Numbered from the stretch's first letter, positions 13,690 through 31,781 are shown. The stretch: 35,922 nucleotides of DNA from a bacterium (GCA_041477795.1 JBGOUY010000003.1:1-35922); one strand, 5' to 3'. The notes: generated by a model not told the origin, from the letters alone. Numbers and translations: made by a program.

Positions 13690-15093
13690 CTACACGATGG
13701 CCCCCTGCTCGCGCAGGCGCTCGCGCAGCAACCGTGCATCCAGACTTGCCACCAGGTGGTCCTGTTGCACCGACAGCGCCGCCGCCAGGCCTGCGGCCTG
13801 CCCGGTGGCGTAGCAGGGGGGAATCACCCGCGCCGAGGCGGCGGCCTCGTGCGTGGCGGAAATCGGCCGCCCGGCCACCAGGAGGTTCTTGACCCGGACC
13901 GGCACCAGACAGCGGTAGGGAATATCGTAAAAGGCCGGGGCGGTGGGCTTCACCTGCCGCTCGGTATCCGCGGCCGAATTGCCGAGGCCGATCAGCTTGC
14001 CGCGCGAGCCCGTCGGATCGTGGATGTCGATGGGATAGGCACAGCGCGCGATGGCGTCTTCGAAGCGCCGACCCGCCAGCACATCCTCGCCGGTCAGCGT
14101 ATAGAGGCCCTGGATGTGCCGGGTCTCGCGGATGCCGACCTGCGCAGCCATTTCCAGCAGCGTGACGTTTTCCAGTCCCGGACAATTCGCCTTCATGAAT
14201 CGGAATACCGCGAGCCCTTGCCGACGTCCCTCGATCTCAGCGCGCGAGAGGTCGTCCGGGTTGGTGCCGTCGATGTCGTGCAGGCGGGTGATGTTGACGC
14301 GGTACTCGCCCGGAGTCGGCTCGCGGTACAGGTTCAGGTACTCACGCGGGATATCCCAGCGGCCCTCGGCGCGCGCCTGACGAACGATGCCTTCGAACAG
14401 CCGCTCGCCCGGATGCGCCCGGGCGTACTGTTCCAGCCGGGCATCGTCCACGTTGCCGAAGCGCATGAACAGGGTGGCGGGCATCATCTTGCCGTCGGAG
14501 GATCGCCCCTTGCTGTAGGGCACGCCGGCATTGGCCGCCACGTCCGCATCCGCGGAGGCGTCCACGAAGTTGCGCGCGCGGATCAGGCTCAGGCCGGCCT
14601 TGTTGTGCACCACGATGCCTTCGATGCGTTCGGCGTCCAGCAGGGCGTGCACGAAGGAGGTGTGGAACAGGATGCGCACGCCGGCGCCCTGCACCAGCTC
14701 CATGGCCGCCAGCTTCAGCGCCTCGGGGTGGAACGGAGTGACATGGGCGTGGCCCAGCTCGATGAAGGCCGAGTACGCCGAGCCCGCCTCGGTGCGGGCG
14801 GGATCGATGGCGCCCCCCAGCTCCACCATGCGGTCGATCATCTCCTGGAAGACGCCCCCCACGACGCGCTGCGTGCCGTCCGCGGAGTAGCTGGTCATGA
14901 ACGGCCCCACCATACCGGCCGTGGAGGTGCCCCCAAGGAAGCCGTAGCGCTCGACCAGGATCGTATGGGCGCCCGCGCGGGACGCGGCGATGCTCGCGGC
15001 GATGCCGGATGAGCCGCCGCCCACGATGCAGACGTCGCACTCCGCCACGACGGGGATGTCGAATGCGAGGTGCACCTTGCGGGGCGCGGTCAC
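13690..15093 (-). CDS. FAD-dependent oxidoreductase (FAD_oxidored/PF12831-like)
   Basis: DVCIVGGGSSGIAASIAA, ERYGFLGGTST, VDASADAD, GIRETR, YDIPYRCLVP..NLLVAGR, ATGQAAG. Confidence 0.9.
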   Translation of the reverse strand: MTAPRKVHLAFDIPVVAECDVCIVGGGSSGIAASIAASRAGAHTILVERYGFLGGTSTAGMVGPFMTSYSADGTQRVVGGVFQEMIDRMVELGGAIDPARTEAGSAYSAFIELGHAHVTPFHPEALKLAAMELVQGAGVRILFHTSFVHALLDAERIEGIVVHNKAGLSLIRARNFVDASADADVAANAGVPYSKGRSSDGKMMPATLFMRFGNVDDARLEQYARAHPGERLFEGIVRQARAEGRWDIPREYLNLYREPTPGEYRVNITRLHDIDGTNPDDLSRAEIEGRRQGLAVFRFMKANCPGLENVTLLEMAAQVGIRETRHIQGLYTLTGEDVLAGRRFEDAIARCAYPIDIHDPTGSRGKLIGLGNSAADTERQVKPTAPAFYDIPYRCLVPVRVKNLLVAGRPISATHEAAASARVIPPCYATGQAAGLAAALSVQQDHLVASLDARLLRERLREQGAIV

Positions 15094-15657
15094 GGGCAGC
15101 CCTTTCCAGGAGGAAACCGAGCAGTGCGCTCAGAGCCGCGGGGGCTCCGGGCCGGTCGCAATGGCTGCAGGGCCTCCATTCATCATGGCACAACTCCGCG
15201 CCCCGCGACGAGTGCGCGCCCCCGCAGCGACCCCTGCCCACTCCTGCCTCACGAAGTCCGATCAGGCGCTTGCCAGGGAGGGAGCCTCTCGAACGCGAAT
15301 CGCTTCGCGACACCGCTCTGCATGGACCTTGTGCGGGCTCCTGCAACGCGGCTCCGCCGGAGGGCAGCAGGACAGCGGCGACGGTGGCGGCAGACGACCA
15401 CCGCGCCAAAAGGTCGTGGAAGCCGGTGGCAAGAATCACCGCTACGCGCCGTCACAAGCGGCGCCTGAGCGGATTCCAACTGAGCAGATCCGAACCGGGT
15501 CGGGCCGAATGCAGTATCCAGCCGGTGCACTCGCAGAACCGCTCGCTCCCGAAAGCTCGCAGACCGTTGAACTTGAATGCCGGGCTGCGGCGGGCCGTCC
15601 AGTGCTCCAGATCCTGGGTGATCCGCAGAAGCTGCCAGCCCCTGTTTCCGCGACCGG

Positions 15658-16638
15658 CTAGTCCCCGGCAGCCTTCGCGGCCGGCTTGCGCTCGCCCCGG
15701 TTGCGCGGATCGTACATGCCAAGCGAGTTGTCGTAGGCCGCCAACTTCGCCGGATCGAGGTATTTGCGTTCCCACTCGGTGACCTTGGCGAAGCCGGTCA
15801 GGTCGAAGATGCCGAAGCCGGCCAGCGGGTGATCCTGCCGGCCCTGGAACAGCCCGGTCAGGGCGTCCGTGCCGTGCTGCTTGAACTCCACCAGGAAGTC
15901 GTAGATGGCCATGGAGCCGAGTTGGCTGGGGAAGCAGCTCAGCAGCACCAGGCCGAACGAGCGGATCTCCTCCGCCGTGAGCGGGGGCTTGATCGCCATC
16001 GTGGTGGCCTTCAGCCACGTGTCCGGGAAGGCTTGGCGCACGGTGCGCAGCTCCTCGCGGGACTGCAGCGCCTCGACGTAGAGGATGTCCACGCCCGCCT
16101 GAAGATACGCCGCCCCGCGCCGCAGCACCTCCGCCAGGCTGCCGCCCACGGCTCCGCGGGCATCGGTGCGCGCCATGAGGATGAAATCGGGGTCCAGCGC
16201 ATCGCGCACGTCCACGGCCGCGCGGTACTTGCCGGCGGCCTCCTCCAGGGAGATCAGCTCCTTGCCTTTCACGAAGCCGCAGCGCTTCGGGGCCACCTGA
16301 TCCTCGATGAACAGCCCGGCTGCGCCGGCGCGGATGACGGACTCCACCGTGCGGCGCACGTTGATGGCGTTGCCGAAGCCCGTGTCGCAGTCCACGGTGA
16401 CGGGGATCTCCACCGCGCGGCAGATGCGCTCCACGTTCTCCACCAGCTCGGTCAGGGTGAGGAAGCCCGCATCGGGCAACCCCAGGATATGGGCGCTGGT
16501 GAGCGCACCGGAGATGCCCACGACCGTGTGCCCGGCCTTTTGGGCGAGCTGGGCGTGATGGGCCGTGCCGACTGCGATGGAATCCCGCGCTGCGCCCGCC
16601 TGCAACAGCTCGCGCAGCATCGTGCTCTTGCGTTTCAT
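15658..16638 (-). CDS. Isocitrate lyase/PEP mutase superfamily C-C lyase (PrpB/2,3-dimethylmalate lyase-like), paralog 1
   Basis: LGLPDAG, VDCDTGFGNAINVRRTV, IEDQVAPKRCGF, ARTDAR. Start MKRKST. Confidence 0.88.
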   Translation of the reverse strand: MKRKSTMLRELLQAGAARDSIAVGTAHHAQLAQKAGHTVVGISGALTSAHILGLPDAGFLTLTELVENVERICRAVEIPVTVDCDTGFGNAINVRRTVESVIRAGAAGLFIEDQVAPKRCGFVKGKELISLEEAAGKYRAAVDVRDALDPDFILMARTDARGAVGGSLAEVLRRGAAYLQAGVDILYVEALQSREELRTVRQAFPDTWLKATTMAIKPPLTAEEIRSFGLVLLSCFPSQLGSMAIYDFLVEFKQHGTDALTGLFQGRQDHPLAGFGIFDLTGFAKVTEWERKYLDPAKLAAYDNSLGMYDPRNRGERKPAAKAAGD

Positions 16639-16785
16639 GGGATGTCGCCTCTTGCGCCAAAGGGTTGACTGCCGGCGGAGCCTTGGGATCGTCCGCCGCG
16701 CGGGCGTCCGGGGGCCGGGGCCAATGGTGCCGTCCGGGCCGCGCCCGCCCCGCGCAGGCTCCGTGTGCCGCAAGCCGGGGGCAAG

Positions 16786-17295
16786 TCAGGCCCGCGGCGC
16801 GGCGGAGGCGCCTTCCTGCCGCAGCAGCTCCAGGATGCCCCCGCTCTCCACGATGTGAATCAGGTCGGCCGGCAGCGGATGGCCCGCCAGCTCCGTTCCG
16901 CGCGTCAGGTTGCGCACGCGCGAGCCGTTGAAATCCAGCTCCAGCTCGTCGCCCTCCTCGAACGCCTGCGCGACCCCCTTGCAGATCAGCACGGGGAAGG
17001 CGATGGCGATGCTGTTGCGGAAGAAGATGCGCCCGAACGATTCGGCCACCACGCAGCCGATGCCCATCCGCTTCAGGTTCGCCGGAGCGCTCTCGCGGCT
17101 CGAGCCGCAGCCAAAGTTGGCGTCCGCCACGATCACGTCGCCCGGCCGGTGCTCACGGGGAAAGCGCGGGTGGATGTGCAGGATGGTCTTCTGCATCTCC
17201 TCCCAGTCCAGGTTCTGGCTGAAGCTGGGGGCCATGTAGTCCGTATTGATGTCAGGGCCGAACTTCCAGACCCTGCCCTTGATCCGAATCGGCAT
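16786..17295 (-). CDS. 3-isopropylmalate dehydratase-like small subunit (LeuD/HacB/DmdB type)
   Basis: GRVWKFGPDINTD, NFGCGSSRESA, AESFGRIFFRN, ESGGIL. Start MPIRIKG behind AGGAG. Confidence 0.9.
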   Translation of the reverse strand: MPIRIKGRVWKFGPDINTDYMAPSFSQNLDWEEMQKTILHIHPRFPREHRPGDVIVADANFGCGSSRESAPANLKRMGIGCVVAESFGRIFFRNSIAIAFPVLICKGVAQAFEEGDELELDFNGSRVRNLTRGTELAGHPLPADLIHIVESGGILELLRQEGASAAPRA

Positions 17296-17348: not shown

Positions 17349-18611
17349 TCAGGGGAGGTATTTGCGTGGGTCCGCGATGCGACCCTCGATGGCCGAGGCC
17401 GCGACGGTTTCCGGCGAGGCCAGGTAGTTGAAACTCTCTGTGCTGCCCATGCGGCCCTTGAAGTTGCGGTTGGTGCAGGCGATGCCGTTCTCGCCGGGCC
17501 CCAGCACGCCGGTCGAGCCGCCGCCGCAGGGGCCGCAACCCGGCGTGGCGATCATGGCCCCGGCTTCGGCCAGGATCTGGATCACGCCGTTGCGAGTCGA
17601 GTTGATCAGCACCTCGCGCGAGCCGGGAATCACCAGCAGGCGGGTGCCGGGGTGCACCTTGCGGCCCTTGAGGATAGAGGCCGCCCGCTCCAGGTCCTCC
17701 GTGCGCGAGTTGGTGCACGAACCGATGAAGGCCTGGTCGATGCGGATCTCGCCGACCTGGGAGATGGGCTTCACGTGGTCCGGGTTGTGCGGCAGGGCCA
17801 CCTGGGGCTCCATGCCGGTGACGTCCAGCGTGTGCACGGCCAGGTAGCTCGCGTCCGCGTCCGGGCCGAAGGGCCGCACCGGCTCGGGGCTGCGCCCGCG
17901 CAAGTAGGCCACCGTCTTCTCGTCGGCCGCGAAGAAGGCGAACTTCGCCCCCATCTCCACGCCCATGTTGCTCATCGTCATGCGGCCATCCACGCTCATT
18001 GCCGAGGCGACTGCACCGCCAAACTCGACGGCTTTGTACTGCGCCACCTCCGCGGTGTGCTCACCCATCAGGCGCAGCATCACGTCCTTGGAAGTGATGC
18101 CCTTGCCCAACTTGCCGCGCAGCTCGAAGCGGATGGTCTCGGGCACCTGGAACCAGAGCTGGCCCTTGCACATGGCATAGGCCAGCTCGGAGAAGCCCAG
18201 GCCACAGGAGGCGGCGCCTAGCGCACCGTAGGTGGTGGTGTGGGAGTCCCCCCCGACGATCAGCCTGCCGGGCAACGCGTGCCCCTTCTCCGGCAGCACG
18301 GTGTGGCAGATGCCTTCGCCGGCATCGTAGAAATGGCGGATGCCCAGCTTGCTCACGTAGCCCCGGATGCGCTTCTGGATCTCCGCATCCAGCACGGTCA
18401 TCGCCGGCACACGGTGGTCGGTGATGACCACGATGCGATCGGGATGGGCCACGCGCTCGATGCCGATATTCATCAGGTATTCGTAGGCCTTGGGGAACGA
18501 GCGGTCGTGCCCCATGATCACGTCGATCTCCGCCGTGACGAACTCGCCGGGGCGGACCGTGCGCCGGCCGGATGCGCGGGCCAGGATCTTCTCAGCCATC
18601 GTCATGCCCAT
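17349..18611 (-). CDS. 3-isopropylmalate dehydratase-like large subunit (LeuC/HacA/DmdA type, [4Fe-4S])
   Basis: MGMTMAEKILA, GHD, DSHTTTYGALG, IGSCTN, CGPC, TNRNFKGRMG. Confidence 0.9.
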   Translation of the reverse strand: MGMTMAEKILARASGRRTVRPGEFVTAEIDVIMGHDRSFPKAYEYLMNIGIERVAHPDRIVVITDHRVPAMTVLDAEIQKRIRGYVSKLGIRHFYDAGEGICHTVLPEKGHALPGRLIVGGDSHTTTYGALGAASCGLGFSELAYAMCKGQLWFQVPETIRFELRGKLGKGITSKDVMLRLMGEHTAEVAQYKAVEFGGAVASAMSVDGRMTMSNMGVEMGAKFAFFAADEKTVAYLRGRSPEPVRPFGPDADASYLAVHTLDVTGMEPQVALPHNPDHVKPISQVGEIRIDQAFIGSCTNSRTEDLERAASILKGRKVHPGTRLLVIPGSREVLINSTRNGVIQILAEAGAMIATPGCGPCGGGSTGVLGPGENGIACTNRNFKGRMGSTESFNYLASPETVAASAIEGRIADPRKYLP

Positions 18612-18676: not shown

Positions 18677-19306
18677 TCAGCCTGCGGGAACGTCGTACAC
18701 CCACGGCCGCCGGGCGCGGTCCCGCGCCTGGTACGCCGCGATGCGGTCCGCATGGCGCAGGGTGCTCGAGATGGCATCCAGGCCTTCGAGCAACGCCGTG
18801 CGGTGCAAATCGGCAAGGGTGAAGGGGAAGCGCTGGCCATCCGGAGCGGTGACCGTGCAGGACTCCAGGTCCACGGTGACGGGCTGCTGGCCGCCCGACT
18901 GCTCGACCTGGGCCGCGATGGCCTCCACCTGCGCAATGGGCAACGTCACCGGCAACATGCCGTTGCGGAAGCAGTTGGCGTGGAAGATGTGACCATAGCT
19001 GGGCGCGATCACGCAGCGGATGCCGAAGTCGCGCAGGGCCCAGGCCGCGACTTCCCGCGAGCTGCCGCAGGCGAAGTTGTGCCCGGCCAGCAGGATCACC
19101 GCCTGGCGGTAGGGCGAGCGGTTGAGCAGGAAGCCCGGATCCTCCTTGCGCTCGCCGTCGCTGTAGCGCCAGTTGGCGAAGAGGCCTTCCGCGAAGCCGG
19201 TCTTGCTGACCTTCATCAGTTCCCGGCCCGGGATGATGGCATCGGTGTCCACGTTGTGGCGCATGAGCGGCGCGGCCACTCCGGTCAGGCTCGTGAAGCG
19301 CTCCAT
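18677..19306 (-). CDS. leuD: 3-isopropylmalate dehydratase small subunit (bacterial LeuD type)
   Basis: MERFTSLTGVAAPL..NVDTDAIIP, LFANWRY, NFACGSSREVA.WAL.DFG, LLEGLD.I. Physiological substrate is uncertain. Confidence 0.85.
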   Translation of the reverse strand: MERFTSLTGVAAPLMRHNVDTDAIIPGRELMKVSKTGFAEGLFANWRYSDGERKEDPGFLLNRSPYRQAVILLAGHNFACGSSREVAAWALRDFGIRCVIAPSYGHIFHANCFRNGMLPVTLPIAQVEAIAAQVEQSGGQQPVTVDLESCTVTAPDGQRFPFTLADLHRTALLEGLDAISSTLRHADRIAAYQARDRARRPWVYDVPAG

Positions 19307-19308
19307 GG

Positions 19309-20727
19309 CTATGCCCTCAGGTGACGCACGTCGGCGATGCGCCCGGCCAGCGCGGAGGCCGCCACCGTGACCGGGCTGGCCAGATGCGAGCGCACGCCCG
19401 GCCCCTGGCGCCCTTCGAAGTTGCGGTTGGTCGTCGAGACGACGCGTTGCTGCACGCCGAAGCCTTCGCCTTTCACGCCGCCGCTCATGCAGAACGAGCA
19501 GCCCGACTCCCGCCATTCGAAGCCCGCCGCGCGGAAGATGCGGTCGATCCCTTCCGCCTCCGCGGCGCGCTTGACCTGGGTGGAGCCCGGGGTGCAGATG
19601 GCCTTGACCCCCGCGGGCACGCGCCCGCCTTTCAGCACGGCCGCCGCGGCCCGCAGGTCGTCCAGCCGGCTGTTGGTGCAGGAGCCGATGAAGGCGCCCT
19701 CGATCGGCAGGCCCGCCAGCGCCTGGCCCGGCTGCAGGCCCATGTAACTCAGGGCGCGCTCCATGCCCTGGCGCGCCACGGGGTCCGCGGCGCGGGCGGG
19801 GTCGGGCACGTGACCGTCGACGCCGGTTTCCTGCTCCGGGCTGGTGCCCCAGGTCACTTGCGGCGCCAGGCCGCTGCAATCGATGCGCACTTCCCGGTCG
19901 AAGCGGGCCCCGCGGTCGCTGGGCAGGGCGCGCCAGTACGCCGCCGCCTGCTCCCAGGCCCGGCCCTTGGGGGCGAAGGGGCGGCCGGCCAGGTAGGACA
20001 GCGTGGTGTCGTCCGGGGCCACGAAGGTCATGCGGGCGGAGAACTCGATGCCCATGTTGCACAGCGTGAGGCGGCCCTCCACGCCCAGGGCACGCACCGC
20101 GCTGCCGGCGTATTCCACCGCGTAACCGTTGCCGCCATCCGCGCTGATGCGCCCGATCAGGTGCAGCACCAGGTCCTTCGCGCTCACGTGCGTGGGCAGC
20201 GTGCCCTCGAAGTTCACCCGCATGGTCTGCGGGCGGGTGAGCAGCAGGGTCTGCGTGGCCAGCACGTGGCCGCCCTCGGTGGAGCCGATGCCCCAGGCCA
20301 GCGCCCCCACCCCGCCCACGGTGCAGGTGTGGCTGTCTCCGCACACCAGCGTCGTGCCCGGCAGGGCGATCCCCAGCTCCGGGGAGACCACGTGAACGAT
20401 GCCCTGGTAGGGGTGCTCGAGGTCGAACAGACGCAGGCCGTGCTTGCGGGTGCCTTCGCGCAGGCCGCTGATGAATCCGTCGCCGCCCGGGATGCGCGTG
20501 GTGTACCCGCGCCCGGGCAGGGTCTCGATCACATGGTCCAGCGTCGCGAAGGTGAGCTCCGGGTGGCGCACGGGCCGGGGCGGGTCGTCCAGCTCCTTGA
20601 ACGACATCGTGCCGCTCAGCTCGTGCAGGAAGTGCCGGTCGATGTGGATCAGGCAGGTGTCCTGGCCCAGATCGGCCACCACGTGGTCATCCCAGACCTT
20701 CTCGAACATCGTGCGGGCTGGGGGCAT
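19309..20727 (-). CDS. leuC: 3-isopropylmalate dehydratase large subunit (bacterial LeuC type)
   Basis: RTMFEKVWDDH, IDRHFLHE, QGIVHV, CGDSHT, VTWGTSP, IGSCTNSR, GCSFC, NRNFEGRQG. Physiological substrate is uncertain. Confidence 0.87.
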   Translation of the reverse strand: MPPARTMFEKVWDDHVVADLGQDTCLIHIDRHFLHELSGTMSFKELDDPPRPVRHPELTFATLDHVIETLPGRGYTTRIPGGDGFISGLREGTRKHGLRLFDLEHPYQGIVHVVSPELGIALPGTTLVCGDSHTCTVGGVGALAWGIGSTEGGHVLATQTLLLTRPQTMRVNFEGTLPTHVSAKDLVLHLIGRISADGGNGYAVEYAGSAVRALGVEGRLTLCNMGIEFSARMTFVAPDDTTLSYLAGRPFAPKGRAWEQAAAYWRALPSDRGARFDREVRIDCSGLAPQVTWGTSPEQETGVDGHVPDPARAADPVARQGMERALSYMGLQPGQALAGLPIEGAFIGSCTNSRLDDLRAAAAVLKGGRVPAGVKAICTPGSTQVKRAAEAEGIDRIFRAAGFEWRESGCSFCMSGGVKGEGFGVQQRVVSTTNRNFEGRQGPGVRSHLASPVTVAASALAGRIADVRHLRA

Positions 20728-22367: not shown

Positions 22368-23312
22368 ATGGAAAAGAAAAGCACCCGCCTGCGCAAGCTG
22401 TTCGAGGACAGCCAGATCCTCACCACCATCTGGGGCGCCACCGCACATCACGCTCAGCTCAGCCAGGGTGCCGGCTTCCAGGCCTTCGGCATCTCCGGCT
22501 CGAACACCAGCACGCACCTGCTGGGCCTGCCCGATGCGGGCTTCATCACCCTGACTGAGCTGGTAGAGAACGTGGAGCGCATCTGCCGTGCCGTGGAGAT
22601 CCCGGTGTTGGTGGACTGCGACACGGGCTTCGGCAACGCCATCAACGTGCGCCGCACCGTGGACTCCGTGATCCGCGCCGGCGCGGCCTGCCTGTTCATC
22701 GAGGACCAAGTCTTTCCCAAGCGCTGCGGCTTTGTCAAAGGCAAGGAGCTGATCCCCCTGGAAGAGGCCGTGGGCAAGTACCGCGCCGCGGCCGACGTGC
22801 GCGACGAGCTGGACCCGGACTTCATGCTGATGGCGCGCACGGACGCGCGCGGGGCCGTCGGTGGCAGCGTGGAGGAGGTGATCCGGCGCGGCAAGGCCTA
22901 CCTGGAGGCCGGCGTGGACATCTTCTACGCCGAGGCCCTGCAATCGCGCGAGGAGATTCGCGCGGTGCGCGCGGCCCTGCCCGACTGCCTGCTGATCGCC
23001 ACCCAGTACGCCATCAAACCGCCGCTCAGCCGCCAGGAGATGATCGACCTGGGCTTGTCCATGACGGGCATCCACATTGCGCGCATCGCCTCCATCGCCA
23101 TGTACGAGTTTCTCAAGGACTACCGGCAGCGCGGCGAGGATGCCTACAACGAATTCACCGCACGCTACGAGGGCCATCCGCTCGCCGGCTTCGGCATCTT
23201 CGACCTGACGGGCTTTCCGCAGGTAGTGGAATGGGAGCGGGCCTACCTGCCCAAGGAGCGGCTGGAACGCTACGAGCAATCGCTCGGGGTATACGACCCG
23301 CGCCACCGCTGA
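22368..23312 (+). CDS. Isocitrate lyase/PEP mutase superfamily C-C lyase, paralog 2
   Basis: AAGGAG RBS; LGLPDAG, VDCDTGFG, IEDQVFPKRCGF, ARTDAR. Confidence 0.88.
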   Translation: MEKKSTRLRKLFEDSQILTTIWGATAHHAQLSQGAGFQAFGISGSNTSTHLLGLPDAGFITLTELVENVERICRAVEIPVLVDCDTGFGNAINVRRTVDSVIRAGAACLFIEDQVFPKRCGFVKGKELIPLEEAVGKYRAAADVRDELDPDFMLMARTDARGAVGGSVEEVIRRGKAYLEAGVDIFYAEALQSREEIRAVRAALPDCLLIATQYAIKPPLSRQEMIDLGLSMTGIHIARIASIAMYEFLKDYRQRGEDAYNEFTARYEGHPLAGFGIFDLTGFPQVVEWERAYLPKERLERYEQSLGVYDPRHR

Positions 23313-23387: not shown

Positions 23388-24392
23388 TCAGGCGCCGGCC
23401 CAGGTGGCGGCGTCCCGCGCGGCGACCCGGAACTCCTCGATCCGATCCAGGTGGTGGCAGGCCGAAACGTGACCGGGGCCGACCTCCCGCAGCACCGGCT
23501 CCTCGGCACTGCACTGCTCCGTGGCAAACGGGCAGCGCTCGTGAAAGCGGCAGCCCGGCGGCGGCGCGATCAGGTCCGGCGGCGCGCCGGGAATGGAGAT
23601 CAGCTCGCGCATCTCCTCCCCGATGGATGGGAAGGCGTTGACCAGGCCCAGCGTGTAGGGGTGCTGCGGCTGGCGGAACACGACGCGGTCGCCGTACTCC
23701 ATCAGCTTGCCGGCATACATGACCGCAATGCGGTTGCAGTTCTCCGAGACGACGGCCAGGTCGTGCGTGATCAAGAGCATGGTCTTGCGCAGACGCTCGT
23801 GGATTTCCTTCAGCCGCACCAGGATCTGGTCCTGCACGATCACGTCCAGGCCCGTCGTGGGCTCGTCGGCGATGATCAGCACGGGGTCCAGCACCAGCGC
23901 CATGGCGATCATGGCGCGTTGGCGCATGCCGCCGCTGAACTGGTGCGGATAGTCCTTCAGCCGCGCAGGATCCAGGCCGACCATCTGGAACAGCTCCGCG
24001 GCGCGCGCCTGCATCGTGCGCGAGGAAGCCCGCCGGTGGGCCGCGTAGGCCTCGATGAGCTGCTGCTCGATGCGATAGACTGGGTCGAAGGAGTGCATCG
24101 CGCTCTGGGGCACGAGCGAGATCTCTTTCCAGCGGATCTCGTTGAGCTCCCGGTCGCTGAGCGTGTTCAGCAGGCGCCCGCCGAAGCGGATGCTGCCCCC
24201 GGCGATTTCCCCGTTCGGCGGCAGGATGCCCAGGATCGCCTTGGCGATGGTGGACTTGCCGCAGCCCGATTCGCCCACCAAGCCCAGGTAGTCGCCCTCA
24301 TGGATGGCGAAGGAGACGCCGTCCACGGCCTTGGACGGGCCTTTGGCGGTGCGGAAGTACACGCGCAGGTCGCTCACCTCCAGCACGGCCAT
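23388..24392 (-). CDS. Oligopeptide/dipeptide ABC ATP-binding protein (OppD/DppD-like)
   Basis: GESGCGKST, YPHQFSGGMRQR, ADEPTTGLDV, ITHDL, HPYT, GCRFHERCP. Confidence 0.92.
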   Translation of the reverse strand: MAVLEVSDLRVYFRTAKGPSKAVDGVSFAIHEGDYLGLVGESGCGKSTIAKAILGILPPNGEIAGGSIRFGGRLLNTLSDRELNEIRWKEISLVPQSAMHSFDPVYRIEQQLIEAYAAHRRASSRTMQARAAELFQMVGLDPARLKDYPHQFSGGMRQRAMIAMALVLDPVLIIADEPTTGLDVIVQDQILVRLKEIHERLRKTMLLITHDLAVVSENCNRIAVMYAGKLMEYGDRVVFRQPQHPYTLGLVNAFPSIGEEMRELISIPGAPPDLIAPPPGCRFHERCPFATEQCSAEEPVLREVGPGHVSACHHLDRIEEFRVAARDAATWAGA

Positions 24393-24395
24393 GGC

Positions 24396-25358
24396 CTAGA
24401 TGTCCCTCAGGCGCGGGTTGATCATCTCCTCGTAGGCGCGCGTGATCATGAAGCTGGACGTGACCAGCAGGCTCAGGCACAGGCCCGGCGGCAGCACCCA
24501 CCACCACGCATTGCGCATCGCTCCAGCGTTGAACGCCCCATTGAGCATGGAGCCCCAGCTCACGACGTGCGGATCGCCGAAGCCCAGGAAGCTCAGCGCC
24601 GCTTCCAGGAACACTCCCGCCGAGACGCCGATCGCCATGTACAGGAAGCTCAGGGGCAGCACGTTGGGCGCGATGTGGTAGAAGAGGATCTTGACCTCGT
24701 GCGTACCCGCCGCGCGCGCTGCCCACACGAACGGCCGCTCGCGCAGGCTCAGCACCTGGGAGCGGATCACGCGCGCGGTGGTGCGCCAGAGGAAGAAGAT
24801 CACCAGCAGGATCACCACGGTCAGGCTGGGCGTGGTGATCGAGATGACGATCAGGGCGAAGGGCAGGAACGGAATGCCGAAGGCCACGTCCGTGATGCGC
24901 ATCAGCACTTCATCCAGCCAGCCCCCGTAGTAGCCGGAAAAGAGTCCCACCAGCGTGCCAATGACCACGCTGCCGATCGCCGAGAGGATGCCCACCGTCA
25001 GCGCAACGCGGGACCCCCAGAGCAGTTGGCTGTAGACATCCATGCCCTGGTTGGTCGTGCCCAGCCAGTTGGTCAGCGTGGGCACGGAAAGCCGCACCAC
25101 GGACTTGTCCGCGTGATAGACCACGTCGAACGGGCCGAACGGCGCGATCAGCGGCGCGGCCAGGGCCATGGCCACGAACATCACCACCAGCACCAGGCCG
25201 ACCGCCCCCAGGGGGTCTTTCCCGATCACGCGCAGGCTGGCCAGCGTCAGGCGCAGCAGCGAGGTGCGGCGCCGGATGGTCGCGCGCACGGCCCTCACGG
25301 AGAGGGCCTGGGCCGCCACGGGCCCACTCGTTGAAACGATCGGGTGCGGTTCGCTCAT
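24396..25358 (-). CDS. Oligopeptide/dipeptide ABC permease (OppC/DppC-like)
   Basis: WLGTTNQGMD, ARVIRSQVLSLRER, HIAPN, EAALSFLGFG, SWGSML, NPRLR. Confidence 0.92.
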   Translation of the reverse strand: MSEPHPIVSTSGPVAAQALSVRAVRATIRRRTSLLRLTLASLRVIGKDPLGAVGLVLVVMFVAMALAAPLIAPFGPFDVVYHADKSVVRLSVPTLTNWLGTTNQGMDVYSQLLWGSRVALTVGILSAIGSVVIGTLVGLFSGYYGGWLDEVLMRITDVAFGIPFLPFALIVISITTPSLTVVILLVIFFLWRTTARVIRSQVLSLRERPFVWAARAAGTHEVKILFYHIAPNVLPLSFLYMAIGVSAGVFLEAALSFLGFGDPHVVSWGSMLNGAFNAGAMRNAWWWVLPPGLCLSLLVTSSFMITRAYEEMINPRLRDI

Positions 25359-25402: not shown

Positions 25403-26377
25403 TCAATGATACGTGATGCGCGGGTCAACCAGCCCGTACAGCACGTCCGCGATGAAGTTGAGGAACAGGATGGTCAGGGCCATCAGGTAGAACGCCGCCT
25501 GCGCCACCGGGTAGTCCAAGTCGTTCAGCGCCGTCACCAGCTCGCGGCCCACGCCCGGCCAGGCGAAGATGATCTCCAGCACCACCTGGCCCTGGAAGAT
25601 GAAGCCGGTCGTCACCGCCACGTACGTCACCAGCGGCAGCAGTGCATTGCGCGTGGCGTGCACAATGATCGCCGCGGGCGGCAGCCCCTTGGCGCGCAGC
25701 ACATCCAGGAAGTCGCTGCCCTTCACCTCCAGCATGCTGCTGCGCAGCAGCAGCGCCGGGCCGGTCACCTCCCGACTGAACACCACCAGCGTGGGCAGGA
25801 TCAGGTGCTTGAGGAAATCCAGCGACAACACCATGTCCCAGAATGCGCCGGCCGAACCGGGGGAAACCATCCCGCCGGAGGGGAGCCAGTGCAACTGGTA
25901 ACTGAACACCATCAGCATCATGATCCCCACGAAGAACGAGGGGGCCGAGCGCAGGAACAGGAACGTGATGATCGTGCCGGACTCGAACGCCGAGCCGCGC
26001 TTCCAGCCCGCCACCGCCCCGATCACCGTTCCCAGGATCACGCTGAGGAACAACGCCGGCAGCATCATGGCGCAGGTATTGGCCAGCTTTTCCGCCACGA
26101 TGCCCTTGACCGGCGCCACCTGGAAGAACGAGGTGCCGAAGTCGAAGCTCAGCATGTTGAGCATGTAGCGCCCGTACTGCACGTACCAGGGCGCATCCAG
26201 ACCCCACGCGTGCCGCGTGCGATCGATCATCTCCAGCGAGAAATTGTTGTCGACGAAAATCGCGGTGGGGTCGCCCGGCAGCAGCTTGAACAGGGCGAAC
26301 ATGATCGTGAGCAGGCACAGCACCACGAACACCAGGGTGACCAGCCGGCGCAAGATGTAGCGACGCAGCCCTCCCAT
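25403..26377 (-). CDS. Oligopeptide/dipeptide ABC permease (OppB/DppB-like)
   Basis: YILRRL, LPGDP, DFGTS, HLILP, RAKGL, HATRNALLP, EIIFAWPGVG, DYP, DPRI. Confidence 0.92.
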   Translation of the reverse strand: MGGLRRYILRRLVTLVFVVLCLLTIMFALFKLLPGDPTAIFVDNNFSLEMIDRTRHAWGLDAPWYVQYGRYMLNMLSFDFGTSFFQVAPVKGIVAEKLANTCAMMLPALFLSVILGTVIGAVAGWKRGSAFESGTIITFLFLRSAPSFFVGIMMLMVFSYQLHWLPSGGMVSPGSAGAFWDMVLSLDFLKHLILPTLVVFSREVTGPALLLRSSMLEVKGSDFLDVLRAKGLPPAAIIVHATRNALLPLVTYVAVTTGFIFQGQVVLEIIFAWPGVGRELVTALNDLDYPVAQAAFYLMALTILFLNFIADVLYGLVDPRITYH

Positions 26378-26464
26378 TGTCACCTGCTTGGCTCTGCGGA
26401 GCGGCGTTCCGCGTGCGACCGTCGCCGGTGCGCCGCGGAACGCCCCTCGCAGATGAGGCCGGGA

Positions 26465-28357
26465 TCAGCGCGGAGCCATCTTCAGCCCGCCCCAGTGGTA
26501 GCCGGGCTTGACGACCTGGTTCACGCGCTCGATGAACGCCTTGTTGTCCGGATCGGGATACAGCAGTCTGCCCTCGCTGTCCCAGCTATACCCCGCATCC
26601 TTGAGGATCTGCCGCGCCTTCTCCAGGTCGAAGGCAGGCACGGGTGGTAGTTTAGGGTTGTTCCACGGGTTGGTATCCACGAGGAACGTATTGGAGGCGG
26701 GCACGCGCCCCTCGCCTTCCCAGACCACCTTGACCAGGAATTCCCGGTCGAACAGGTGCTGCCAGGCTAGGCGGAACTGATAGTCGCGGAAGGGCAGCCA
26801 GGATGTGCGTGGCACGGCATGGAACCAGTTGATGTCCTGCGAGCGCACGATCGTCAGGTGCTTGATCCCGGTCAGCTGCTTGGCCTGGCTGGGCGTCAGG
26901 TTGAGGTCTTCCGTGAAGTCGATCTCGCGCGATTCCAGTCGGCCCAGCTCCCCATCGACGCTGGGCACCACCACGTAGAGCAGCTCGTCGATCTGCGGCG
27001 CCGTGAAGTGCTCCTTGTTGGCCGCCAGCAACAGCTCGGTGTCCTTGCGATGGCGGACGAACTTGAAGGGCCCGCTGCCGATCGGCTGGGTGATTGCAAG
27101 CTGGCGGGGATCGGTCAGCTTTTCCTTCTCCATCCGGCCCTCCCACAGGTGCTTGGGCAGGATCACGTTCAGCACCACAAAGGAGGTCTCGAACTCGGCA
27201 TAGGGCTGCTTGAAGCGCAGCCGCATCGTGCGGGCTTTGGGATCGAGGATCTCGGCCGACTCCAGATACTGGTTGGCCGTCCAAAAGATGCCGCGCTCAT
27301 ACTTCATCATGAAGTCGAGCGTGAACTTGAGATCGTCCAGCGTGACGGGCTTGCCGTCGTGGAATTTCATGCCATCGCGCAGCACCACGTCCCACGTGCG
27401 GTCGTCCACGTTTTCCCAGGATTCCAGGGCCCAGGGAACGGTGTTCAGCTGCTCATCCAGGTAGCCCAGCCGGTCGTAGATCATGCGCCCGATGGCGCGG
27501 AACAGGTTGCCCGCGCCGGTGATATTGAGCGTATCGACCAGGTCCCGCGTGCCCACGACGATGCGGTGGCGCGAGCCCTTGGGCTTGGCCTTGAGATACG
27601 TCCAGAACATGTTGGAATCGGAGATGCCGAACCCGCGCGCCTTGACCACGCCCTCCCAGTCCGCGCTGTTATAGGCCTGCACGATGGAGGGGCCCCAGCC
27701 GAGCTGCGTGATGTACAGGTCGTCGGCGAGCACCGCCTGAGCATCCTGCACCAGCGTGAGCCGCGTCTTGCGGGTGCTGGCGCCAGCCTGGGCGCGGATG
27801 AACTTGTCGTACTCCAGATTGACCCATTCCCCATAGTTGCGCCGGTCAGGCCCGTAGGCGCGCGAGGTGAGCCATTCGGAGGGGTCCATGCGCTCGACGC
27901 GCGGCACGGCCGGGTGCAGCTCCACGTCGCCGTAGTAGTGCTTGTTCACGCTGTCCAGCCAGCGCGTGAGGGAGACCTGGGTGATCTTGTACTTAAGGCC
28001 GATTTTCTCGGCGTCCTGGGCCCACTTGCGCATGGCGTCCAGCCAGAACGGAAAGGCCGGCGTCACAAGCACCTCGAAATCGGGCACGCGCTCGCCCTTC
28101 TTGGGCCATTGGATGCGCGGATAGGTCATCTCCCGCCACTTTGGATCGTCGGCGAAGTAGCCCTTCTGATCCCGATAGACTTTGGCGATGCCGGGATCGA
28201 CGAATTGGAAGTCGTCCTTGGTCTGGGCCCACGCGCTGGCCGGGGCGAGCCATGCCCCCAGGAGCAGGGCGGCCAGCAGCGTCCAGGCCAGGCCCTTGCC
28301 CGACCGGTGGCGCAGGGCGGCGGAAGAGTTGGCTGCGGGCTGCGGCAAGATCTTCAT
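26465..28357 (-). CDS. Family 5 (OppA/DppA) ABC substrate-binding protein, apparently circularly permuted
   Basis: Signal peptide ending ASAWA-Q; IYDRL, LRDGMKFHDGKPVT.DD.KFT, PIGSGPFKF and FDLEKARQILKDAGY are present, but the block order is rearranged. Confidence 0.85.
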   Translation of the reverse strand: MKILPQPAANSSAALRHRSGKGLAWTLLAALLLGAWLAPASAWAQTKDDFQFVDPGIAKVYRDQKGYFADDPKWREMTYPRIQWPKKGERVPDFEVLVTPAFPFWLDAMRKWAQDAEKIGLKYKITQVSLTRWLDSVNKHYYGDVELHPAVPRVERMDPSEWLTSRAYGPDRRNYGEWVNLEYDKFIRAQAGASTRKTRLTLVQDAQAVLADDLYITQLGWGPSIVQAYNSADWEGVVKARGFGISDSNMFWTYLKAKPKGSRHRIVVGTRDLVDTLNITGAGNLFRAIGRMIYDRLGYLDEQLNTVPWALESWENVDDRTWDVVLRDGMKFHDGKPVTLDDLKFTLDFMMKYERGIFWTANQYLESAEILDPKARTMRLRFKQPYAEFETSFVVLNVILPKHLWEGRMEKEKLTDPRQLAITQPIGSGPFKFVRHRKDTELLLAANKEHFTAPQIDELLYVVVPSVDGELGRLESREIDFTEDLNLTPSQAKQLTGIKHLTIVRSQDINWFHAVPRTSWLPFRDYQFRLAWQHLFDREFLVKVVWEGEGRVPASNTFLVDTNPWNNPKLPPVPAFDLEKARQILKDAGYSWDSEGRLLYPDPDNKAFIERVNQVVKPGYHWGGLKMAPR

Positions 28358-28510: not shown

Positions 28511-29491
28511 CTAGTCGCTGGCGGCCTTGACTGCGCCGGCCACGGCCTTGCGGCTGCGGGGATCGTAGAGCCCGAGCGAGCTATCGTAAGCGGCCAGCTT
28601 TTCCGGCGGGAGGTACTTGCGCTCCCATTCGGTCACCTTGGAGAACCCTGTCAGGTCGAAGATGCCGAAGCCGCCCATGGGGTGGTTGCGCGTGCGCGCC
28701 AGCAGCTCGGTGTTGGCGATCTGCCCCCGCTTCTTGTAGTCCATCAGGAAGTCGTACTGGGCCACCGAGCCCGCCGTGGCCGCGAAGGCCAGCGTCAGGC
28801 ACAGCCCGTACTCGCGGTGCTCCTCGTCGGTGAGCGGCGGATCGATCGCGATCGCCGTGGCCATCAGGAGCTCATTGGGGAAGGCCTCGCGCACGGTGCG
28901 CAGCTCCGCGCGGTTCTGCAGCGCTTCCACGTAGAGCACGTCGACCCCGGCCGCCCGGTAGGCGCGGCTACGGCGGATCGCCTCCTCCAGGCTCCCGCCC
29001 ACGGCCCCACGGGCATCGGTGCGGGAGACGAGCACGAAGTCCGGGTCCATCTCGTTGCGGACGTCCGAGGCTGCGCGGTACTTGCCGACGGCCTCTTCGA
29101 GGGAAATCAGTTCCTTGCCTTTCACGAAGCCGCAGCGCTTCGGGGCCACCTGATCCTCGATGAAGCAGCCCGCCGCGCCGGCGCGAATGAGCTGCTCGAT
29201 CGTGCGGCGCACGTTGATGGCGTTGCCGTGTCCGGTATCGGCATCCACGAACACCGGGATGTTCACGGCCCGGCAGATGCGCTGGGTGTTCTCCACCAGC
29301 TCGGTGAGCGTGAGAAACCCCGAATCGGGCATTCCGAGGATGTGCGCGCTGGTCAATGCGCCGGAGATTGCAATCGCCTTGAAGCCGGCCAACTGCGCCA
29401 GTTGGGCTTGGTGGGCCGTGCCGACGGCAATCACGTCCAGCAGCTCGGGCGCCTTCAGCAACCGCCGGAAGACGGTACTTTGCTTTTCCAT
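28511..29491 (-). CDS. Isocitrate lyase/PEP mutase superfamily C-C lyase, paralog 3
   Basis: LGMPDSG, VDADTGHG, IEDQVAPKRCGF, SRTDAR. Start MEKQST. Confidence 0.88.
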   Translation of the reverse strand: MEKQSTVFRRLLKAPELLDVIAVGTAHQAQLAQLAGFKAIAISGALTSAHILGMPDSGFLTLTELVENTQRICRAVNIPVFVDADTGHGNAINVRRTIEQLIRAGAAGCFIEDQVAPKRCGFVKGKELISLEEAVGKYRAASDVRNEMDPDFVLVSRTDARGAVGGSLEEAIRRSRAYRAAGVDVLYVEALQNRAELRTVREAFPNELLMATAIAIDPPLTDEEHREYGLCLTLAFAATAGSVAQYDFLMDYKKRGQIANTELLARTRNHPMGGFGIFDLTGFSKVTEWERKYLPPEKLAAYDSSLGLYDPRSRKAVAGAVKAASD

Positions 29492-29976
29492 GGAAGCCTC
29501 GCAGGCAAGCGATCCGCGTCCAGATAGCCGTACAGGGGCCAGGGCAGCCGGGCCTGTCGCGGTGCTGGCGTGGGCACCCAATCAGCCCTCGCGGATTCCG
29601 CACAGCAACCGACTCCTGCTCCCTCAAGCCGTCGGTCTACCGTGCTTTGCCGAGCCGAGGACGGTCTGGGTCTGGTGAGGGCCCACCACGCTAACCTGGG
29701 GCTTCCCCGCTTGTCAAAGCGCAGCCGGCGGGCGCTTACGGCCGCGCGGCGCGGCGCGGACAGCGGCCAACGCACAGGCTGGATCGGGCGCGCACGGGCA
29801 GTGCAGCCGGCAGAGCGGTCGCTTGCCGTCTGAGAGCCCCGGGCGCACGATGGCCGTCTTGGGGGCGGCGCTTTGCGCTTGCCCCCTTCGGTGAGTCGGG
29901 GCGTCCACGCGCTCCCGGCGGGGCATCGGCCCGGCCCCGCCGCACGCAGCAACCCGGCAGAAGAGGAGGGTGAACG

Positions 29977-31227
29977 ATGGGCATGACCATGATCGAGAAG
30001 ATTCTGGCCCGTTCCGCGGGCGTGTCCAAAGTCTCACCGGGCGAGGTGGTTACGGTGGACGTAGAAACCGCCGTCGTGATCGACCTGAATTTCCTGCCGC
30101 ACGACTGGCGCGAGCCCAAGAAGGTCTGGAGCCCGGACAAGTGCGTCGTGATCTTCGACCACATCGCACCGGCCAGCGACGAGCGCTCGGCAATCCTGCA
30201 CACCACCGGTCGCGACTTCGTGCGCAATCAGAAGATCAAGCGCTTTCATGACGTGGGCCCGGATCAGGGCATTGCCCATCAGCTGGTGGCCGACTTCGGC
30301 TATGCTCTGCCTGGCACGGTGCTGGTGTGCGTGGATTCCCACACGTGCAGCGGGGGCGCGTTCAATTGCGCCGCGCGCGGCATTGGGGGCCCGGAACTGA
30401 TCTACGTGCTGGCCACGGGCAAGACCTGGTTCCAAGTTGGCACCACGGTGCGTTACGAGTTCCACGGCGCACTGCCACCCGTGCTCAACTCCAAGGACCT
30501 CATCATCCACATCGCGAACGTCTACGGCGACCACGCCACGCAGAACGTGGAGTACGCTGGCCCTGGCGTGGCCAACATGAGCCTCAACGCGCGACGCACC
30601 CTCAGCACCATGTCCGCCGAGATCAGCGCGGAATTCGCCACGTTCGAGGCGGACGAGCTGTGCCAGGAGTACCTGCGCTCGCGCACGGATCGGCCCTTTG
30701 AGCCGCAGTTCCCCGATCCGGACGCCAGCTACGACGACGTGCGCACGATCGACCTGAGCGCGCTGGAGCCGCTGGTGGCCTACCCGGATACGATCGTCAA
30801 GAACGGACGGCCCGTGCGCGAAGCGGCTGGCGAACGCGTGGATCAGGCCTTCATCGGATCCTGCGCCAACGGCACCCTGGACGACCTGGAGGTGGCGGCC
30901 CGGATCGTGAAGGGCCGGCGCGTGGACTCCCGCGTGCGCTTCATCGTGACGCCCGGCTCGCAGGCGATCTACCGCGAGGCCCTGCGCCGCGGTTACATAG
31001 CCGACCTGATGGAGGCCGGGGCCGTCGTCACCGCCTCCACCTGCGGGGCCTGTGCGGGCCTGAGCGCGGGGGCGCTGGCGCCCGGCGAGCGCTGCATCAC
31101 GGCCAGCACCCGCAACTACAAGGGCCGCATGGGCAGCCAGGAAGCCGAGATTTTCCTCGCTTCGCCGGCCACCGTGGCGGCCACGGCCCTGCGAGGCACC
31201 ATCACCGATCCGCGGGAATTCATCTGA
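29977..31227 (+). CDS. Aconitase/3-isopropylmalate dehydratase-like large subunit (third copy)
   Basis: MGMTMIEKILA, FDH, DSHTCSGGA, IGSCANG, CGAC, TRNYKGRMG; GAGGAGG RBS. Confidence 0.9.
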   Translation: MGMTMIEKILARSAGVSKVSPGEVVTVDVETAVVIDLNFLPHDWREPKKVWSPDKCVVIFDHIAPASDERSAILHTTGRDFVRNQKIKRFHDVGPDQGIAHQLVADFGYALPGTVLVCVDSHTCSGGAFNCAARGIGGPELIYVLATGKTWFQVGTTVRYEFHGALPPVLNSKDLIIHIANVYGDHATQNVEYAGPGVANMSLNARRTLSTMSAEISAEFATFEADELCQEYLRSRTDRPFEPQFPDPDASYDDVRTIDLSALEPLVAYPDTIVKNGRPVREAAGERVDQAFIGSCANGTLDDLEVAARIVKGRRVDSRVRFIVTPGSQAIYREALRRGYIADLMEAGAVVTASTCGACAGLSAGALAPGERCITASTRNYKGRMGSQEAEIFLASPATVAATALRGTITDPREFI

Positions 31228-31244
31228 TCAGCGGGGAGCCGACC

Positions 31245-31781
31245 ATGAAGCTGAAAGGCAAGACCTGGAAGTTCGGTAACGACATCAATACCGATCTGCT
31301 GCTGCCCGTGCCGGTGGTGTTCATGCCGGCCGAGGAGCAGGCCAAGCACGTCATGGAAGCCAACCGGCCCGGCTGGGTGCAGCAGGTGCGGCCGGGGGAC
31401 GTCATTGTCGCCGGCCGGAACTTCGGCATGGGCTCCGGCCGGCCGGCCTCCCGCGCCGTGAAGGGCACCGGCATTGTCTGCGTGCTGGCGGAATCCATCA
31501 ACGGACTGTGCTTCCGCAACAGCGTCAACTTCGGGTTGTGGGCGATGGAAGTGCCCGGCGTGCACGCGGCCTTCGAGGAAGGGGACATTGCCGAAGTGGA
31601 CTTCGAGGCGTTCACGGTGCGAAATGCCCGCAGCAAGAAGGTGCTCAAGGGGCGCCCGTTCCCCCAGAACCTGCGGGACATCCTGGCGGCCGGCGGCATC
31701 ATCCCGATGCTGGATGCGCAGGGTCTGCTGCTGCCCAAGCTGCCGCCGCGCGGGGCGGCTCCGCGCGCCACGGGGCGCTGA
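31245..31781 (+). CDS. 3-isopropylmalate dehydratase-like small subunit (third copy)
   Basis: GKTWKFGNDINTD, GRNFGMGSGRPA, AESIN..CFRN, AAGGII. Confidence 0.87.
   Translation: MKLKGKTWKFGNDINTDLLLPVPVVFMPAEEQAKHVMEANRPGWVQQVRPGDVIVAGRNFGMGSGRPASRAVKGTGIVCVLAESINGLCFRNSVNFGLWAMEVPGVHAAFEEGDIAEVDFEAFTVRNARSKKVLKGRPFPQNLRDILAAGGIIPMLDAQGLLLPKLPPRGAAPRATGR

Follow-up and report, generated by a model that had tools for sequence, protein, structure and literature searches.

The stretch analyzed here (GCA_041477795.1, JBGOUY010000003.1:1-35922; the whole 35,922 nucleotides are referred to as the window) belongs to the metagenome-assembled genome (MAG) of a sediment bacterium, which comprises 433 contigs and is 91% complete. 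Positions 15658 to 31781 hold an accessory gene cluster that joins an Opp-type importer to three Fe-S hydratases and three C-C lyases. Genes were called by third-position GC, because the window is 64 to 72% GC, and were then scanned with Pfam and NCBIfam models, with some starts refined by reading the sequence. The genes of the cluster are as follows.

15658..16638, minus strand: PEPM1, lyase of the isocitrate lyase/phosphoenolpyruvate mutase (ICL/PEP-mutase) family, type A, 326 amino acids (aa); PF13714, 137.7 bits
16786..17295, minus strand: S1, small hydratase subunit paired with L1, 169 aa; passes TIGR02087 (LeuD/DmdB family) with 150.1 against a cut-off of 108.95
17349..18611, minus strand: L1, Fe-S hydro-lyase large subunit of the archaeal/Hac/Dmd type, 420 aa; NF001614, 548.8, over the cut-off
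18677..19306, minus strand: S2, small subunit paired with L2, 209 aa; NF002458, 243.8; TIGR00171, 204.5, passed
19309..20727, minus strand: L2, Fe-S hydro-lyase large subunit of the bacterial LeuC type, 472 aa; PF00330, 500.9 bits
21259..22293, plus strand: OppF-type ATP-binding cassette (ABC) ATPase; ABC_tran and oligo_HPY
22368..23312, plus strand: PEPM2, type-A lyase in the conserved slot after OppF, 314 aa; PF13714, 141.9
23388..24392, minus strand: OppD-type ABC ATPase; ABC_tran and oligo_HPY; copies in related loci 63 to 68% identical
24396..25358, minus strand: OppC-type permease; BPD_transp_1 and OppC_N; copies in related loci 73 to 80% identical
25403..26383, minus strand: OppB-type permease; BPD_transp_1 and BPD_transp_1_N; copies in related loci 66 to 73% identical
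26465..28357, minus strand: OppA-type family-5 solute-binding protein, 630 aa; SBP_bac_5, 185.8 bits
28511..29491, minus strand: PEPM3, type-A lyase, first gene of the PEPM3-OppABCD unit, 326 aa; PF13714, 141.0
29977..31227, plus strand: L3, second archaeal-type Fe-S hydro-lyase large subunit, 416 aa; NF001614, 440.6, over the cut-off
31245..31781, plus strand: S3, small subunit paired with L3, 178 aa; TIGR02087, 133.1, over the cut-off

These genes fall into four transcription units: L2-S2-L1-S1-PEPM1, OppF-PEPM2, PEPM3-OppA-OppB-OppC-OppD, and L3-S3. The first unit runs on the minus strand in the order L2, S2, L1, S1, PEPM1, with the ATG of S2 2 bp past the L2 stop codon, and is followed on the same strand by a 564-bp gap, a gene for an FAD-dependent oxidoreductase, and the genes of a CUT1-type importer. 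OppF and PEPM2 (plus strand) diverge from L2, the PEPM3-Opp unit (28357 down to 23388 for its Opp genes) converges on OppF-PEPM2, and L3 and S3 (plus strand) diverge from PEPM3. The assembly was checked against other sediment metagenomes: pieces from four other runs match the stretch at at least 95% identity, and seven junctions are bridged among the pieces listed (PEPM1/S1, S1/L1, L1/S2/L2, OppB/OppA, OppA/PEPM3, PEPM3/L3, and L3/S3); this check used short contigs and left out a possible source run. Open reading frames (ORFs) that seem to extend L1, L2, S1, S2, and OppA upstream are high-GC read-through rather than protein, and two sets of candidates, the apparent additional N-terminal sequence of L2 and the gap ORFs at 15094-15657, were rejected as genes, being Arg/Ala/Pro-rich nonsense with stops.

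An initial annotation of this DNA had described three LeuC/LeuD-type heterodimers with intact cluster cysteines and three ICL/PEP-mutase paralogues. Both sets are borne out by the Pfam and NCBIfam scans, and the large-subunit cysteines by alignment. The annotation also held that leuA, leuB, prpC, and prpD are absent from the window, and the HMGL-like, Iso_dh, citrate synthase, and MmgE/PrpD families indeed have no match among the scanned window ORFs. Whole-genome family searches (of which prpC was not part) found leuB, PrpD-family, and HMGL-like matches only on other contigs.

The large subunits score 282 to 501 bits against PF00330. L1 and L3 are 42% identical, and L2 is about 33% identical to either. 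In an alignment of the three with eight relatives, C299, C359, and C362 (L1 numbering; GSC.N and C..C) are invariant, as are the DSHT motif (D122-S-H-T125) and R382, N383, and R387 of RN..GR. By these features, L1, L2, and L3 each qualify as the large subunit of a heterodimeric LeuCD-type hydro-lyase of the aconitase superfamily. L2 passes NF009116 (687.7) and lies just under the cut-off of TIGR00170 (559.3 versus 560.25). L1 and L3 reach neither the cut-off of TIGR02083, the model for archaeal-type LeuC, LEU2 (463 and 354 versus 610.65), nor that of HacA_Meth (455 and 330 versus 550), and the small subunits stay below the archaeal LeuD/HacB-type equivalogs (96 to 138 versus cut-offs of 229 to 246). 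The only models passed by the L1/S1 and L3/S3 pairs are the broad subfamily models NF001614 and TIGR02087. Among the cluster genes as a whole, no equivalog cut-off is reached for LeuC, TIGR02083 LEU2, HacA/B, PrpB, or CPEP mutase.

The small subunits differ where substrate specificity is expected to reside. PMC7308503 describes a GSSRE substrate-binding motif and a substrate-recognition loop in such subunits. GSSRE is kept in S1 and S2; the match is only partial for S3, which has GSGRP at this position, as against GSSRP in its relatives. Recognition loops of the S1 type are polar, whereas that of S3 and its type is hydrophobic (PVPVVFM). In the S2 type the loop reads PGREL, compared with RIERL in a clade of second copies and PKQFL in the LeuD encoded on contig C3 of the same genome, the sole housekeeping-side small subunit in that loop alignment.

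The initial annotation had argued against leucine synthesis and had asked whether separate leu genes exist elsewhere. Two further bacterial-type LeuCD pairs are encoded in the genome, on contigs C3 and C138, and leuB and HMGL-like genes lie on other contigs. Against TIGR00170, the C3 LeuC has the highest score of the genome (675.6) and the C138 copy scores 628.9, both above L2. The same division is seen in four cluster-carrying genomes, each with one LeuC at 778 to 806 and with cluster-linked copies at 542 to 582. In a 25-sequence LeuC tree (a quick search, with a midpoint root for drawing only), L2 lies within a clade of cluster-linked copies with a Shimodaira-Hasegawa-like approximate likelihood ratio test (SH-aLRT) support of 99; tandem second copies form a second clade (99), and the C3 copy and the four top-scoring LeuCs fall on the other side (99). 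The cluster pairs resemble LeuCD and HacAB in family, heterodimeric composition, cluster cysteines, and GSSRE, and subfamily models name L2/S2 as isopropylmalate isomerase. Unlike LeuCD, L2 is under the leuC cut-off, belongs to a cluster-tied paralogue clade, is paired with a subunit with a changed recognition loop, and is not beside leuA or leuB; unlike LEU2 and HacA, L1 and L3 are under the respective cut-offs. L2, which narrowly misses the equivalog, falls in a separate clade, and has no leu gene context in the window, is not the housekeeping LeuC, and a better-scoring LeuCD lies on another contig.

The three lyases are PF13714/PF00463 paralogues that are 61 to 70% identical to each other; the genome has four more PEPM-family genes, to which they are 33 to 40% identical. 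Residues D57, D84, D86, E113, K119, C121, R158, and E190 are retained and align with Escherichia coli PrpB, the first seven being invariant, and the roles of the catalytic Cys, Asp, Glu, and Arg in this lyase branch are treated in PMC7609661. With these residues, the three PEPM proteins belong to the lyase branch of the ICL/PEP-mutase superfamily. The canonical form of the lyase loop is K(R/K)CGH. The window lyases read EDQVAPKRCGF or EDQVFPKRCGF, and KRCGF replaces KRCGH in 26 of 29 type-A and Dehalococcoidia rows of the alignment, compared with His in all 16 other rows. A second type-A marker, seen in 19 of 23 type-A rows, is a conserved extension of the C terminus that finishes with YDPR; for this part, the lyase model has a predicted local distance difference test (pLDDT) score of only 38 to 73 and allows no structural role to be read. 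The KRCGF loop and the conserved extension mark these lyases as a distinct subfamily, here called type A. PEPM1 and PEPM3 pair as sisters in the lyase tree (99), which indicates a lineage-specific duplication, and PEPM2 groups with OppF-linked orthologues of Alpha- and Betaproteobacteria. Many related loci also carry a second lyase clade, type B.

A protein-collection search with the lyase gave 3979 matches at E ≤ 1e-20 among the 8000 best-ranked candidates scored; the best 120 relatives listed are all at least 61% identical and are mostly metagenomic. Only generic "isocitrate lyase/PEP mutase family" clusters were returned for the lyase from the ESM Atlas. A fourth hydratase-lyase module lies outside the window on contig C138 (locus L013, 10852-15348) and consists of a bacterial-type LeuCD pair sister to the window L2 clade, a PrpB-like type-B PEPM lyase (prpB, 285.6 bits, under the cut-off), and a GntR regulator.

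The relationship of the lyases to PrpB raises the question of a modified methylcitrate- or glyoxylate-type route. In such a route, 2-methylcitrate, 2-methylisocitrate, or citrate-like acids would be the substrates of the LeuCD-like enzymes, and the PEPM proteins would be methylisocitrate or isocitrate lyases for propionate or acetate metabolism. The cluster and the methylcitrate cycle share a logic of dehydration and rehydration (AcnB or AcnD/PrpF in the cycle) followed by retro-aldol cleavage (PrpB), and the window lyases retain the catalytic Cys, Asp, Glu, and Arg. The closest solved relatives of the lyases are methylisocitrate lyases: the best Protein Data Bank (PDB) match of PEPM1 is E. 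coli PrpB (1mum, E 1.8e-43), and its AlphaFold model (pLDDT 81.5) is best matched in fold by methylisocitrate lyase (1oqf), with CPEP-mutase-like proteins, dimethylmalate lyase (DML; 3fa3 and 3fa4), OAH, and petal death protein (PDP) among the other matches. The prpB model (TIGR02317) is also the best NCBIfam model for all three, yet the scores of PEPM1 (193.5), PEPM2 (203.4), and PEPM3 (203.8) miss the cut-off of 354.4 by about 150 bits, and those against the PrpB model NF008455 (174 to 181) do not reach 353. Moreover, the position that we take to be Asn210 of PrpB is Lys in PEPM1, and the subfamily has its own C-terminal extension. The window has neither a citrate or methylcitrate synthase nor PrpD, the PrpD-family genes of the genome being on other contigs; the hydratases are of the LeuCD type rather than AcnB or AcnD; and a biosynthesis-independent importer is conserved beside the lyase. 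A methylcitrate-type role is therefore quite improbable.

A second known pathway to be weighed is the end of nicotinate fermentation in Eubacterium barkeri, where dimethylmaleate hydratase (DmdAB) is followed by 2,3-dimethylmalate lyase (Dml). The cluster genes could be orthologues of this pair, or of a citraconate or maleate hydratase with a lyase, and would then consume dimethylmaleate, citraconate, or maleate. In both systems, a two-subunit aconitase-family Fe-S hydro-lyase is combined with a C-C lyase of the ICL/PEP-mutase family. The LeuD/DmdB model is passed by S1 and S3, the Joint Genome Institute (JGI) automatic name "2,3-dimethylmalate lyase" is attached to 4 of the 120 best lyase relatives, and the fungal DML structures are among the fold matches. 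However, TIGR02087 is a broad subfamily model, and the PEPM1 sequence scores lower against solved fungal DML (3fa3, 106 bits) than against PrpB (152 bits). No other nicotinate-fermentation gene is in the window, and orthology with DmdAB and Dml would leave unexplained the three hydratase types, the two to four lyases per locus, and the dedicated Opp-type importer. Set against the general description of the E. barkeri system, the cluster differs in having three hydratase types, three lyases of a separate subfamily, a conserved Opp importer, and no upstream nicotinate genes. We regard this explanation as unlikely. The "dimethylmalate lyase" genes in Variovorax and Rhodospirillum papers proved to be PrpB-context genes.

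PEP-mutase-family enzymes also occur with LeuCD-like dehydratases in phosphonate biosynthesis, and the cluster might accordingly consume or produce compounds of the phosphonomethylmalate or phosphonomethylmaleate type, like the pathways for pantaphos (hvr) and FR-900098, with the Opp system importing phosphonopeptides. The pantaphos operon of Pantoea ananatis, according to PMC7858074, contains a PEP mutase, the isopropylmalate dehydratase homologues HvrD/E, and a flavin enzyme, and one NCBI relative of the lyases is named "carboxyvinyl-carboxyphosphonate phosphorylmutase." The pantaphos operon is nevertheless biosynthetic and includes an exporter, a synthase, and a genuine PEP mutase, whereas the cluster has lyase-type Cys loops and an importer. 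The Ppm-specific motif EDKX5NS, given in PMC8942020, is absent from all three lyases, which read EDQV.PKRCGF and so would not be PEP mutases. Their scores against the PEP_mutase, Pphn_pyruv_hyd, and CPEP_Pphonmut models are 89 to 183 versus cut-offs of 320 to 420 (TIGR02320, 89 to 99 versus 319.55), and no phosphonomethylmalate synthase (HMGL-like) is in the window. A phosphonate role is hardly probable at all.

The importer has the complete architecture of an Opp/Dpp-type ABC system, with an SBP_bac_5 binding protein, two BPD_transp_1 permeases, and two oligo_HPY ATPases. This five-component arrangement is that of the Opp/Dpp/Nik family-5 importers, from which AppA, NikA, and AccA are PDB matches of OppA. 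Unlike those, the binding protein of the cluster is ∼630 aa long, carries a signal peptide and some 170 additional residues at its N terminus, fits no NCBIfam equivalog (nikA, 84 versus a cut-off of 393), and is set among organic-acid enzymes rather than peptidases. Its copies in related loci are 55 to 65% identical, and OppF orthologues (63 to 67% identical) lie directly upstream of a type-A lyase in nine related loci. Of the two importers that the initial annotation had described as interleaved with the enzymes, the Opp system is complete and interleaved, but the CUT1 genes are adjacent and lie outside the 13690-31781 region that it had delimited.

The initial annotation had called for a search for conserved synteny, and here the link among hydratase, lyase, and Opp genes recurs. 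A profile scan with the lyase, with one genome per species, gave 78 loci, which were split by the identity of their best lyase to the window proteins into 16 close loci (at least 55%) and 62 others; the window proteins were then sought within 10 kb (tblastn, E ≤ 1e-10, at least 50% coverage). A large and small hydratase pair is present in 15 of the 16 close loci but in 8 of the 62 others, and the sole close locus lacking one is a short contig (6.5 kb) whose first base falls within the lyase gene. Three or more Opp genes are found in 9/16 close loci (at least 50% identity) versus 6/62 others (any identity). The order OppF-lyase-OppA-OppB-OppC-OppD recurs in a Syntrophaceae MAG (L018), a Deltaproteobacteria-labelled MAG (L019), Bradyrhizobium sp. 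LHD-71, and Verticiella sediminum, and also in a Herminiimonas MAG and alphaproteobacterial MAGs. The co-localization of pairs, lyases, and Opp genes thus spans Thermodesulfobacteriota/Myxococcota-labelled MAGs and Alpha- and Betaproteobacteria.

The hydratase types are distributed unevenly among these loci. L018 and L019 have L1-type pairs and a second archaeal-type pair, the alpha- and betaproteobacterial loci have one or two L2-type pairs, and L025 and L030 have an L3-type pair with copies 57 to 58% identical to L3; L1 is 61 to 70% identical to its counterparts in L019, L021, L022, L024, and L033. At least two large subunits are present in 5 of the 16 close loci and at least two PEPM genes in 8. 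The exact 3:3 ratio of hydratases to lyases, from which the initial annotation had argued for parallel or iterative modules, is not conserved, as related loci have one or two pairs and one to four lyases each. The ratio is partly lineage specific because two of the window lyases are recent duplicates.

This conservation also bears on the possibility that the region is a mosaic island with no common function, in which a peptide importer and unrelated enzyme paralogues are redundant spare copies. Mobile and addiction elements do flank the region, the three hydratase types resemble the types of different lineages, and the PEPM1-PEPM3 duplication would suit such an origin. On the other hand, the same families recur together, partly in the same order, in distant lineages (the 15/16 versus 8/62 loci above), cluster-linked LeuC paralogues form their own well-supported clades, and all catalytic residues are intact. 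We consider a mosaic without common function highly improbable. Given the equivalog cut-offs missed, the better-scoring LeuCD elsewhere in the genome, the conserved co-localization, and the differing small-subunit loops, neither of the outcomes that the initial annotation named as fatal to a dedicated pathway was found.

ORF clustering of 18 loci (L018 to L035) and the window gave no further widely shared family beyond the hydratases, lyases, and Opp components. GntR regulators are among the lineage-specific neighbors. In L019 (2460-6841), two family-III coenzyme A (CoA) transferases, a GntR/UTRA regulator, and a gene of the HMG-CoA-lyase subfamily (360 bits versus a cut-off of 246) precede the cluster, and the CoA-transferases and the HMG-CoA-lyase-like gene could handle lyase products. 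In each of two haloarchaeal loci, L061 (4782-20505, a Halomarina halobia plasmid) and L064, a distant PEPM lyase occurs together with an archaeal-type LeuCD-like pair and Opp genes, and this set may represent an analogous but longer pathway.

The cluster is accessory. At E ≤ 1e-60, a type-A lyase is present in only 1 of 60 relatives (1/18 of the same family and 0/42 of the same order), and a same-genus genome that is 96% complete has none at that threshold. The cluster was probably acquired horizontally.

Several observations set the FAD oxidoreductase and the CUT1 genes apart from the cluster.

13690-15093, minus strand: FAD-dependent oxidoreductase (FAD_oxidored); PF12831, 419 bits
10410 to about 13540, minus strand: CUT1-type binding protein and two permeases, next to the FAD oxidoreductase

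The initial annotation had counted the FAD oxidoreductase as part of the pathway. It lies directly upstream of the CUT1 genes, shares its strand with the first hydratase operon, and is separated from PEPM1 by the 564-bp stretch, which has no credible ORF. A homologue is present in none of the 78 related loci (0/16 close and 0/62 others). No CUT1 family is among those recurrent in the 19 clustered sequences, although the CUT1 proteins were not used as queries in the related-locus search, and no ATPase gene for the CUT1 set was seen. The FAD oxidoreductase and the CUT1 genes are neighbors and are not supported as parts of the pathway.

How such a cluster might function can be outlined from its gene content, its retained catalytic residues, its conserved co-localization, its separation from housekeeping LeuCD and PrpB, and its accessory status; the catabolic direction, the chemistry, and the substrate class are what we infer from them. 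The cluster is probably catabolic, serving the import, hydration or isomerization, and retro-aldol cleavage of substituted malate- or citrate-like acids, and this sequence of steps, which is that outlined by the initial annotation, is the most economical account. We predict the following. (i) The Opp-type system, with its unusually long family-5 binding protein, would take up one or more hydroxy- or unsaturated polycarboxylic acids, possibly as a metal chelate or conjugate. (ii) The three [4Fe-4S] LeuCD-type hydro-lyases, with their differing recognition loops, would form a (2R)-3-substituted malate, either by hydrating a substituted maleate or by isomerizing a malate or citrate substituted at position 2. 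(iii) The type-A lyases, using Mg2+ and the loop cysteine as catalytic acid, would split the C2-C3 bond to give glyoxylate, pyruvate, or oxaloacetate and a carboxylic acid. Parallel or two-step handling of related substrates is favored over a fixed three-step chain, because the recognition loops differ and related loci often hold two pairs and at least two lyases.

Several points weigh against the proposed import, hydration or isomerization, and cleavage. In 6 of the 16 close loci, the lyase is accompanied by a hydratase pair but by no Opp genes within reach, and the importer is therefore not obligatory. OppA has no close characterized relative, its best PDB match being Bacillus subtilis AppA at an E value of only 1e-28, and family-5 binding proteins, going by the names of its PDB matches, are known for peptides, nickel or metallophores, opines, and oligosaccharides rather than for free organic acids. 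In the lyases, the His that follows the catalytic Cys-Gly is replaced by Phe in nearly all type-A rows. The window contains neither a regulator nor a downstream enzyme for lyase products. Some related loci (L019 and L021) add CoA-transferases and the HMG-CoA-lyase-like gene, and haloarchaeal L061 adds an M20 peptidase, a creatininase-family amidohydrolase, Iso_dh, a PrpD-family protein, and a CitE/HpcH-like lyase; with these extra genes, the real pathway may exceed a hydrate-then-cleave scheme. The FAD oxidoreductase may be a lineage-specific addition transcribed with the first operon.

A broader proposal is more tentative, and we consider it possible rather than probable: that the cluster represents an unrecognized, widespread catabolic route for environmental hydroxy-polycarboxylates (malates or citrates with alkyl or aryl substituents, or acids that chelate metals), with a new lyase subfamily, recruited LeuCD paralogue clades, and a repurposed Opp importer, acting on a substrate outside those of the characterized hydratase-lyase pairs. 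A literature search found no paper describing the cluster or the lyase subfamily, but it was made at the level of titles and abstracts with subscription journals mostly outside its coverage, so a description may exist. If the proposal is true, it would give a role to many genes that current annotation treats as surplus copies of "isopropylmalate dehydratase" or as "methylisocitrate lyase-like" and would define a new specificity class in the ICL/PEP-mutase superfamily and an Opp-type binding protein serving organic-acid catabolism. It would also point to a carbon source of sediments and soils used by both anaerobic and aerobic lineages. This reading is directly testable in two carriers that are in culture, Verticiella sediminum DSM 27279 and Bradyrhizobium sp. 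LHD-71.

Rfam had no match across the whole length of the window, a promoter and terminator scan was near shuffle expectation, a repeat search of three long noncoding stretches found no common operator-like site, and no RNA holder of the stretch is listed. The elements that border the accessory region are as follows.

8963-9941, minus strand: IS630-type transposase in two overlapping ORFs (helix-turn-helix [HTH] domains, 9456-9941; DDE_3, 8963-9529)
31855-32564, minus strand: Gp49/HI1420 toxin-antitoxin pair (Gp49/HigB-like toxin, 32232-32564; HI1420-type HTH antitoxin, 31855-32235)

The accessory region is bounded on the left by the IS630 element, which coincides with a dip in GC to about 0.60. 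The toxin-antitoxin pair comes immediately after S3, and the best sigma-70-like promoter match of the scan lies beside it, at 32597-32570. Farther to the left, 4273-8831 (plus strand) encodes all the parts of a Liv-type (HAAT) ABC system, namely a Peripla_BP_6 binding protein with two permeases and two ATPases; genes for a GAF-domain protein, an MFS transporter, and an aldo/keto reductase come before it. To the right, 32782-35922 (minus strand) encodes an S15/CocE-NonD-type hydrolase (Peptidase_S15 and PepX_C), an ABC ATPase, and, at the end of the window, the mobile domain of a PEP-utilizing enzyme.

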